Source: Escherichia coli (lineage in GTDB: Bacteria; Pseudomonadota; Gammaproteobacteria; Enterobacterales; Enterobacteriaceae). Taken from it: a DNA stretch of 19,979 nt. This document shows, piece after piece, positions 2,025 through 3,011 of the stretch. The first letter of the stretch is position 1, and the number at the start of each line of letters is the position of its first letter. The position numbers were made by a program, and so were the translations under genes. The stretch is from the NCBI RefSeq assembly GCF_003334315.1, contig NZ_QOWR01000070.1; one strand, written 5' to 3'. The notes under the pieces are model-generated. The model was not told where the DNA came from, did no database searches, and saw only the letters and a list, made by a program, of their open reading frames with translations.

Positions 2025-2075
2025 TTGCAAAGTTTGCCCCCAATTTGCCCCATTTAGTACCAGAGAACTGAAATA

Positions 2076-3011
2076 ATGCAAGAAAATCAACAAATTACAA
2101 AGAAAGAACAATACAACCTGAACAAATTACAAAAACGTCTGCGTCGTAACGTGGGCGAAGCCATTGCTGACTTCAATATGATTGAAGAAGGCGATCGCAT
2201 CATGGTTTGCCTCTCAGGGGGTAAAGACAGCTATACCATGCTGGAGATTCTGCGCAATTTGCAGCAAAGCGCGCCAATCAATTTTTCGCTGGTGGCTGTT
2301 AACCTCGATCAAAAGCAACCGGGCTTCCCAGAACACGTTCTGCCCGAGTATCTTGAAAAGCTGGGCGTTGAGTACAAGATTGTCGAAGAGAACACTTACG
2401 GTATCGTGAAAGAGAAGATTCCAGAGGGCAAAACCACTTGCTCACTGTGTTCTCGCCTTCGTCGCGGTATCCTTTATCGTACCGCAACGGAACTGGGGGC
2501 GACGAAGATCGCGTTGGGTCACCATCGTGACGATATCCTGCAAACGTTGTTCTTAAATATGTTCTACGGCGGCAAGATGAAAGGTATGCCTCCGAAACTG
2601 ATGAGCGATGATGGCAAACATATCGTTATTCGTCCGCTGGCCTACTGCCGCGAGAAAGATATTCAGCGATTTGCCGATGCAAAAGCGTTCCCGATTATTC
2701 CGTGCAACCTGTGCGGTTCACAGCCTAACCTGCAACGTCAGGTGATTGCTGACATGTTGCGTGACTGGGATAAACGTTATCCAGGGCGTATCGAGACGAT
2801 GTTCAGCGCGATGCAGAATGTGGTGCCGTCGCATCTGTGCGATACCAACCTGTTCGATTTCAAAGGCATCACCCACGGTTCTGAAGTGGTTAACGGGGGT
2901 GATCTGGCGTTTGATCGCGAAGAGATCCCACTACAACCGGCGGGCTGGCAGCCAGAAGAAGATGAAAATCAGTTGGATGAGTTACGGCTGAATGTGGTTG
3001 AAGTGAAATAA
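2076..3011 (+). CDS. ttcA: tRNA-cytidine(32) 2-sulfurtransferase TtcA (311 aa)
   Basis: PP-loop ATPase motif CLSGGKDS and the CxxC cysteine pairs (CSLCSR, CNLCGS) characteristic of TtcA; length 311 aa. Confidence 0.93.

Follow-up and report, generated by a model that had tools for sequence, protein, structure and literature searches.

The left attachment site of the Rac prophage in the 5′ end of ttcA and a candidate pair of arm-type sites for its integrase

The attachment site attP of phage lambda consists of a P arm with the elements P1, H1, P2, X1, X1.5, X2, F and H2, a core organized as C-O-C′, and a P′ arm with H′ and P′1-3 that lies beside int, and in the lambda paradigm the excisionase sites are confined to one arm. 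The integration target of phage phiCTX is a tRNA gene, not ttcA. Prophages are also found in coding sequences, as in the case of e14 in icd and Gifsy-1 in lepA, where a replacement gene end is provided (PMC4632033, PMC6379469). The prophage Rac of Escherichia coli is likewise located in a gene, ttcA (PMC4632033, PMC11014345, PMC6379469), and its junction there is already published and annotated (Liu 2015, PMC4632033; the Rac and ttcC features of MG1655; GenBank KU052037). Excision of Rac has been studied experimentally (PMC4632033 and PMC11014345), and the function of its excisionase XisR has been shown (PMC4632033).

Here we compare these systems with a stretch of E. coli DNA of 19,979 nt, which we call the window and to which coordinates refer unless another locus is named. 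In our reading, positions 2025-2125 form the left attachment site, attL, of Rac, a cryptic lambdoid prophage that sits in the 5′ end of ttcA, and a pair of TTTGCCCC units there are P′-arm arm-type sites of the integrase IntR; we assign this reading, which is built on sequence comparison, a probability of roughly 0.8. The features of the region are as follows.

1-453, + strand: right end of IS1, with the insB′ ORF at 61-438 (sequence and ORFs)
548-787, + strand: xisR (ydaQ), Rac excisionase, a recombination directionality factor (ORF; annotation in matching genomes)
789-2024, + strand: intR, Rac tyrosine integrase of 411 aa (ORF)
2025-2075, + strand: spacer of 51 nt between int and ttcA (ORFs)
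2025-2099, + strand: phage-specific P′ arm of attL, from the intR stop codon to the core, including the phage-borne ttcA codons 1-8
2033-2040, + strand: proposed IntR arm-type site P′a, TTTGCCCC, with the conserved hexamer TGCCCC at 2035-2040
2044-2051, + strand: proposed IntR arm-type site P′b, TTTGCCCC, with the conserved hexamer TGCCCC at 2046-2051
2076-3011, + strand: ttcA, tRNA-modification gene (ORF)
2076-2099, + strand: phage-supplied ttcA start codon and codons 2-8, MQENQQIT (alignments; PMC4632033)
2085-2097, + strand: AATCAACAAATTA, a pattern match to the consensus for IHF (WATCAANNNNTTR), placed between arm sites and core
2100-2125, + strand: common att core AAGAAAGAACAATACAACCTGAACAA, 26 bp, ttcA codons 9 to 17, the same in attL, attR, attB and attP
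2126-3011, + strand: host-derived rest of ttcA, the B′ side (identity to Rac-free loci)
3140-4513, − strand: dbpA (ORF)

The genes xisR and intR lie directly upstream of ttcA and are both transcribed towards it, as judged from the ORFs and from the annotation of identical loci. At positions 1700-2500 the window matches E. coli CP53 completely (100% identity) and K-12-type strains at 99.5%; intR and ttcA are annotated in these strains. In IntR, residues 5-69 match the arm-DNA-binding Pfam family PF12167 (Arm-DNA-bind_2; E = 4e-26), and residues 205-391 the catalytic family PF00589 (E = 1.9e-22); the protein is a member of the IntBPP-1 subgroup of arm-binding tyrosine recombinases (PMC8138268). 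At the other end of the prophage DNA, Rac-like sequence restarts at approximately 453, where the terminal inverted repeat of IS1 ends and Rac DNA adjoins it about 95 nt upstream of xisR. IS1 occupies the place of the rcbA/ralR side of Rac, the prophage being truncated just upstream of xisR, and 5,426 complete E. coli genomes gave no single contiguous match to the IS1/Rac junction. As a result of the IS1 cut at 453, the rest of the prophage and attR are absent from the window, and the core was mapped in other strains.

We established the layout by comparing the window with a Rac-free attB, the attR of MG1655 and five contigs with an intact attP. In the Rac-free E. coli strain CFSAN061762 (locus L001), uspF adjoins ttcA, and ttcA equals that of the window from 2100, nucleotide 25 of the gene, onward, with 43 of the first 50 nt identical. 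Seven of the 24 nt at 2076-2099 differ between this strain (ATGTCGCAAAATCAAGAAATTAGT) and the window (ATGCAAGAAAATCAACAAATTACA), and the sequences 5′ of the ttcA ATG are unrelated. At attR of MG1655, annotated as the ttcC pseudogene, the native promoter region and the native eight codons are followed by the 26-mer AAGAAAGAACAATACAACCTGAACAA and then by phage DNA, GTAAGGGCAAAAATC. A search pattern that joined the phage-type left side of the junction to its phage-type right side retrieved five IMG/VR contigs with an uninterrupted attP, comprising intR, the two repeats, the mimic of the ttcA start, the core and the far arm. Positions 2025-2099 have no counterpart in the Rac-free attB and are continuous with the far arm in the five attP contigs, and no Rac-free E. 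coli or outgroup sequence was seen to match this stretch of ttcA upstream sequence and codons 1-8. Furthermore, the Rac feature in the MG1655 record stops at the base equivalent to 2125, and the att annotation of GenBank KU052037 (Rac-SA53) covers the same 26 nt. Rac-type attL is present in 2,913 of the 5,426 complete genomes.

These comparisons with Rac-free, attR and attP sequences bear out the first-pass annotation of the window in its placement of a Rac/host attachment junction inside the 5′ end of ttcA. The alignment of Rac junctions that it proposed for finding the att core yields the 26 bp at 2100-2125, identical in the attB of CFSAN061762, the attR of MG1655, seven other attR and the five attP contigs as well as in attL of the window. 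Its location of the junction at about 2140 has to be revised, as phage-specific DNA stops at 2099, the common core stops at 2125 and positions 2126-2141 are host DNA. Within the core, attL of Rac-SA53 differs from its own attR at three positions, all in the left half, which suggests that strand exchange takes place within ATACAACCTGAACAA, at 2111-2125. An inverted-repeat check of 1990-2130 reported none, and the identical region in Rac-SA53 narrows to the same ATACAACCTGAACAA.

The phage-type N-terminus MQENQQIT and the native MSQNQEIS are encoded by sequences identical at 17 of 24 nt and differ at four amino acids, and 2076-2099 is phage-specific, so that the start codon of ttcA comes from the prophage, as does the N-terminus, in agreement with the earlier proposal for the latter. 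Excision of Rac alters four N-terminal residues of TtcA because attL and attR match imperfectly (PMC4632033), while just three base changes (Q6E, T8S) after excision are described in PMC11014345. A different crossover point was considered for the latter and dropped; we infer, more simply, that the difference reflects where the deletion boundary was drawn within an identity of AATCAA. Sequence comparison shows that attP of the phage carries its own imperfect ttcA start (ATG and seven codons, 2076-2099) followed by the host-identical 26-bp core at 2100-2125. IntR-mediated exchange in the core moved the native promoter and the first eight native codons to the far prophage end, where the displaced native start corresponds to the ttcC pseudogene of K-12, and joined phage DNA to the remainder of ttcA, leaving a gene that is intact and encodes MQENQQIT in place of MSQNQEIS.

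To place the locus in a wider context, a degenerate codon scan for a conserved 13-residue peptide was used to survey ttcA starts at 120 or more Enterobacterales loci, with one genome per species, of which 119 were classified. Among the matches listed, the C-terminus of an IntR-like integrase lies directly upstream of ttcA at 47 of the 119 classified loci and integrase fragments occur at 28 more. The second TtcA residue is Q at 36 of the 47 integrase-adjacent loci and S at 28 of the 44 integrase-free ones, again among the matches listed. For the species among these matches, the survey presents the ttcA start as an integration hot spot across the Enterobacterales.

Two further E. coli strains show other arrangements at this site. 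Strain Z1323CEC0015 (locus L099, 242-265) has a Rac remnant with a truncated integrase and a hybrid ttcA start, in which codons 2-3 are of phage type and codons 6 and 8 of native type; the hybrid implies an exchange or gene conversion in the imperfect 24-nt region, and not in the 26-bp core. Its repeat units, TTTGCCCT and TATGCCCC, carry one substitution each. Strain G1/2 (locus L003, 858-4003) has a different, decayed island at the same ttcA site, with an integrase pseudogene, genes for Sll1717-family P-loop ATPases split by IS1A, a diverged copy of the attL arm (TTTGCCTC TTA TATGCCCC) and a third TtcA N-terminus, MPENQQVT.

The composition of the ttcA start had drawn attention to the junction in the first place. 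The first 66 nt of the gene (2076-2141) contain 56.1% A at a GC content of 28.8%, and the remainder (2142-3011) contains 25.6% A at 50.3% GC; the A-rich run of about 22 codons and the usual composition after about 2140 were thus correctly observed, and the translation is as read. The tract ranks 57th for A content among 19,914 windows of 66 nt, and the sole comparably A-rich stretch, 1057-1125, lies inside intR. A likeness to the integrase gene holds only loosely, since intR, with 33.7% A and 43.0% GC overall, is far less rich in A than the tract.

The sharp fall in A and rise in GC around 2140, together with a prophage that is generally more AT-rich than ttcA, could be taken to mean that the A-rich tract is phage DNA gained by horizontal transfer, and that the phage/host boundary is near 2140. 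We regard this as almost certainly wrong. Positions 2100-2141 are identical in Rac-free strains, which refutes a boundary near 2140, and the last 16 nt of the tract, the A-rich bases 2126-2141, are host DNA. Moreover, the native 5′ end is as A-rich, with 51.5% A and 30% GC in the first 66 nt of Rac-free ttcA. Over the 108 loci with enough sequence among the matches listed, A averages 47% in the first 66 nt against 24% in the rest of ttcA, and the A-rich start is seen with or without an adjacent integrase. The composition shift therefore fails as a mark of the junction, being present as well in Rac-free E. coli and in 108 species among the matches listed, including integrase-free ones. The comparison with Rac-free E. 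coli, to which the first-pass annotation had pointed, divides its argument: the A-rich 5′ end that it named as contrary evidence is found there, and the sequence upstream differs. These comparisons show that codons 1-22 are A-rich as a property of ttcA itself and not as a phage scar, because the N-terminus is conserved and rich in Lys, Asn, Gln and Glu, with a 14-residue peptide conserved across the Enterobacterales; the phage copy of the ttcA start mimics this native A-rich start. What ends at position 2140 or so is the conserved N-terminal peptide; the prophage does not end there. A shift in composition at the start of a gene may thus stem from the encoded protein, and is not to be taken for an insertion scar.

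The direct repeat reported at 2033-2051 was found at those positions, as two TTTGCCCC units split by CAA with a start-to-start distance of 11 nt, about one helical turn. A direct repeat of at least 8 nt within 20 nt arose in 93 of 20,000 shuffles of the 51-nt spacer, and only 6 independent repeats of this kind occur in the whole 19,979-nt window. The pattern TGCCCCN5TGCCCC, with one mismatch or less, is expected 0.09 times per window and was seen once. Taken by itself, this evidence from the window is no more than suggestive and makes the repeat only moderately unusual. The window has one more TTTGCCCC, on the − strand within intR (999-1006), which is probably a chance occurrence.

Conservation across species is more informative. 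Among the matches listed, TGCCCC-N5-TGCCCC with one mismatch or less lies at exactly −41 from the ttcA ATG, the position it also has in the window, in 34 of 47 integrase-adjacent species, compared with 4 of 44 integrase-free species that have the pair (Fisher p = 5e-10). The pair-bearing integrase-adjacent loci among the matches listed have 13 different N5 spacers, the integrase fragments at the 47 loci are 32-99% identical to IntR, and no bases upstream of the ATG are better conserved in the consensus of these 47 than the two hexamers. A good pair is missing from 13 of the 47 integrase-adjacent loci among the matches listed, many of which are putative decayed remnants. That the TTTGCCCC repeat is a chance or slippage duplication without function could be argued from the window shuffles, 15 of 200 of which contain the hexamer-pair pattern at least once somewhere. 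We give this next to no weight: the hexamers hold a fixed position around a variable 5-nt spacer beside integrase fragments as divergent as those just described, among the matches listed, and the motif is repeated in the far arm. Chance is excluded because the hexamer pair is conserved.

The same motif accompanies related integrases in phages with other sequences around the core. In mEp460_ev081, Fraca, SaltyDalty and IdasGreatGrand, whose integrases are 42-44% identical to IntR, the 3′ end of int contains TGCCCC-N5-TGCCCC, and a second pair follows 207-208 nt downstream, as TGTCCC-N5-TGCCCC in mEp460_ev081 and as the same pair in the other three; what lies between the two pairs has no relation to Rac sequence. 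Similarly, Aeromonas phage pAEv1818 (integrase 35% identical to IntR) has CGCCCC-N5-TGCCCC twice, 208 nt apart, and phiCTX (31%) has pairs of TGTTCCCA on either side of its annotated attP. A search of viral contigs with IntR returned nearly exclusively prophage predictions that are 99-100% identical and end at the int stop codon, and was therefore uninformative on the diversity of arm sites. Conservation of the DNA-reading head of IntR is not demonstrated by these data, because the N-domain is 44-50% identical among the phages that share TGCCCC, barely above the 43% of the whole protein.

The far arm of Rac contains three copies of TTTGCCCC together with TTTGCAGC and TTTGCCAC, at spacings of 11, 9, 10 and 11 nt. 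Counted from the first core base, these units start at 131, 142, 151, 161 and 172 nt and the window pair at −67 and −56, all in one shared orientation. In eight Rac-like attR, some of which are only 80% identical overall, mean pairwise identity is 81% from the core to the repeat block, 88% in the block and 56% beyond it. The far arm of E. coli EC71 (locus L093) has one more 11-nt unit, TTTTTTGCCCC, as slippage in a phased tandem array would give. An inverted 7/8 copy of the repeat, GGGCAAAA, adjoins the core on the phage side at attR of MG1655 (locus L004, 3947-3955); it was considered as an extra site and dropped, as it is kept in close Rac relatives and absent from Rac-like elements of 80-84% identity.

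The most serious alternative, especially for the array in the far arm, is that the TTTGCCCC units are binding sites of the excisionase XisR and not of IntR. Four to five direct repeats phased by the helical turn are typical of excisionase filaments, and in vitro XisR shifts a fragment with attR but not a fragment with only the region upstream of attR (PMC4632033). Against this, the motif lies on both arms, with a strict pair beside int in every family member examined, and sites on both arms are what an integrase that has a dedicated arm-binding domain requires. The P′ pair, moreover, stands on the arm that is free of Xis sites in lambda. We therefore judge XisR binding to the units unlikely as their general explanation, although the extra copies in the far arm could include XisR sites.

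The motif, unrelated in sequence to the core, accompanies the integrase family through changes of core and occurs on both arms with helical-turn spacing; for these reasons we favour arm-type sites. From conservation, position and domain content, 2033-2051 is most likely the P′-arm pair of candidate IntR arm-type sites. An arm-type site was one of two guesses first offered for the repeat, and it is the one to which the comparative data incline. Neither arm-type sites of IntR nor binding of IntR to TTTGCCCC is described in the searchable literature.

The other guess makes the TTTGCCCC pair part of a promoter, or an operator, driving ttcA in lysogens, which would be compatible with a role as arm sites. 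The pair sits 25-43 nt 5′ of the ttcA ATG, and the native promoter is displaced to attR, hence ttcA needs transcription from phage DNA. In the native locus, a uspF terminator is present, and the promoter-like CTGACA-17-TACCAT, the only such site nearby, lies 97-125 nt 5′ of the native ATG; this site stays at attR in the lysogen, and ttcA must therefore be transcribed from phage-side DNA. However, a simple consensus scan of both strands of 1400-2200, which weak or alternative-sigma promoters could escape, gave no sigma-70-like −35/−10 pair with 16-18 nt spacing, and no terminator was found between intR and ttcA. As both scans are empty between intR and ttcA, the idea of a phage promoter there, also put forward in the first-pass annotation, is unsupported. 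In addition, the hexamer pair is repeated in the far arm, where no gene begins, and in phages with other integration sites it flanks attP, lying within the int coding sequence in several of them. A promoter or operator function is, in our estimate, quite improbable, and for the expression of ttcA, read-through from xisR-intR is at least as likely as a weak phage promoter in the spacer.

The match to the IHF consensus overlaps ttcA codons 4-8 and also exists in native, phage-free ttcA (L001, 4003-4015). GeF-seq has been reported to give an in vivo IHF peak at this consensus, close to where ttcA starts at attL (PMC8407004). Among the matches listed, the IHF match is present in 27 of 44 integrase-free and 20 of 47 integrase-adjacent species, and IHF may bind on the bacterial attB side too, unless the match merely follows from conserved Asn-Gln codons.

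Under the arm-site reading, the PF12167 N-domain of IntR would bind the two TTTGCCCC units in the P′ arm. With this pair, three to five far-arm copies 105-155 nt beyond the core and the IHF site at 2085-2097, IntR could bridge arm and core DNA in a lambda-like intasome, and XisR would act on the far arm and drive excision. More broadly, TGCCCC-N5-TGCCCC, as one pair beside int and at least one other about 200 nt off across the core, may constitute the arm-site code of a clade of PF12167 (IntBPP-1-type) integrases whatever the core, in Rac, mEp460-like phages and probably the integrases of Stx phages, with the ttcA start as an Enterobacterales hot spot at which phage mimics (residue 2 Q) routinely replace the native start (S); we put this generalization at even odds. 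Neither such a code nor the hot spot is described in the searchable literature.

The junction is already published and annotated, as are its att of 26 bp and the change of four residues in TtcA, and for the junction this analysis adds nothing new. The family-wide TGCCCC pair is a modest new detail, undescribed in the searchable literature. As a fixed and easily searched hexamer pair, it offers a marker of the int-proximal arm in the IntR-like integrase family, and it could aid in delimiting Rac-like and related prophages and in the design of att substrates for IntR.

Among the known systems, Rac in ttcA of K-12 is the closest, with the same locus, the same xisR-intR-ttcA order and the same 26-bp att (PMC4632033; EcoGene/RefSeq ttcC; KU052037), and the same four TtcA N-terminal residues differ from the native ones. 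The strain of the window is unlike K-12 in that IS1 (1-453) cuts the prophage just upstream of xisR. With e14 and Gifsy-1, Rac shares an att region of the phage that duplicates an end of the target gene, at the cost of a few amino-acid substitutions, and this duplication is why the target gene remains functional after integration in all three. Whereas e14 replaces the 3′ end of its target, Rac replaces the 5′ end, and therefore the start codon, the ribosome-binding site and the transcription signals are also phage-derived.

The arrangement resembles that of lambda in several respects. Rac has, as read from its sequence, a heterobivalent integrase with an N-terminal arm-binding domain, and xis and int are adjacent and transcribed towards att. 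In the short arm beside int, tandem candidate arm-type repeats lie about 50-70 nt away from the core; the IHF consensus match at 2085-2097 falls between them and the core, in a position like that of lambda H′. The long far arm holds more copies at about 105-155 nt from the core. It differs from lambda in its arm-binding domain, which belongs to another family (PF12167, IntBPP-1 subgroup, PMC8138268), in its motif, which is TGCCCC with all copies in one orientation as against C/AAGTCACTAT in lambda, and in its core, which lies within a protein-coding 5′ end and is accompanied in the phage by a gene-start mimic. A further parallel is phiCTX of Pseudomonas aeruginosa (GenBank AB008550), whose integrase shares the domain layout of IntR at 31% identity. 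Its record lists 'R1, R2 repeats', 'attP', 'R3 repeats' and 'IHF binding site'; the TGTTCCCA pairs are the repeats R1-R3 of this record. Like Rac, phiCTX has direct repeats in pairs, spaced by 11 nt, to either side of the core, and its IHF sites are annotated; it departs from Rac in the sequence of the repeat, TGTTCCCA.
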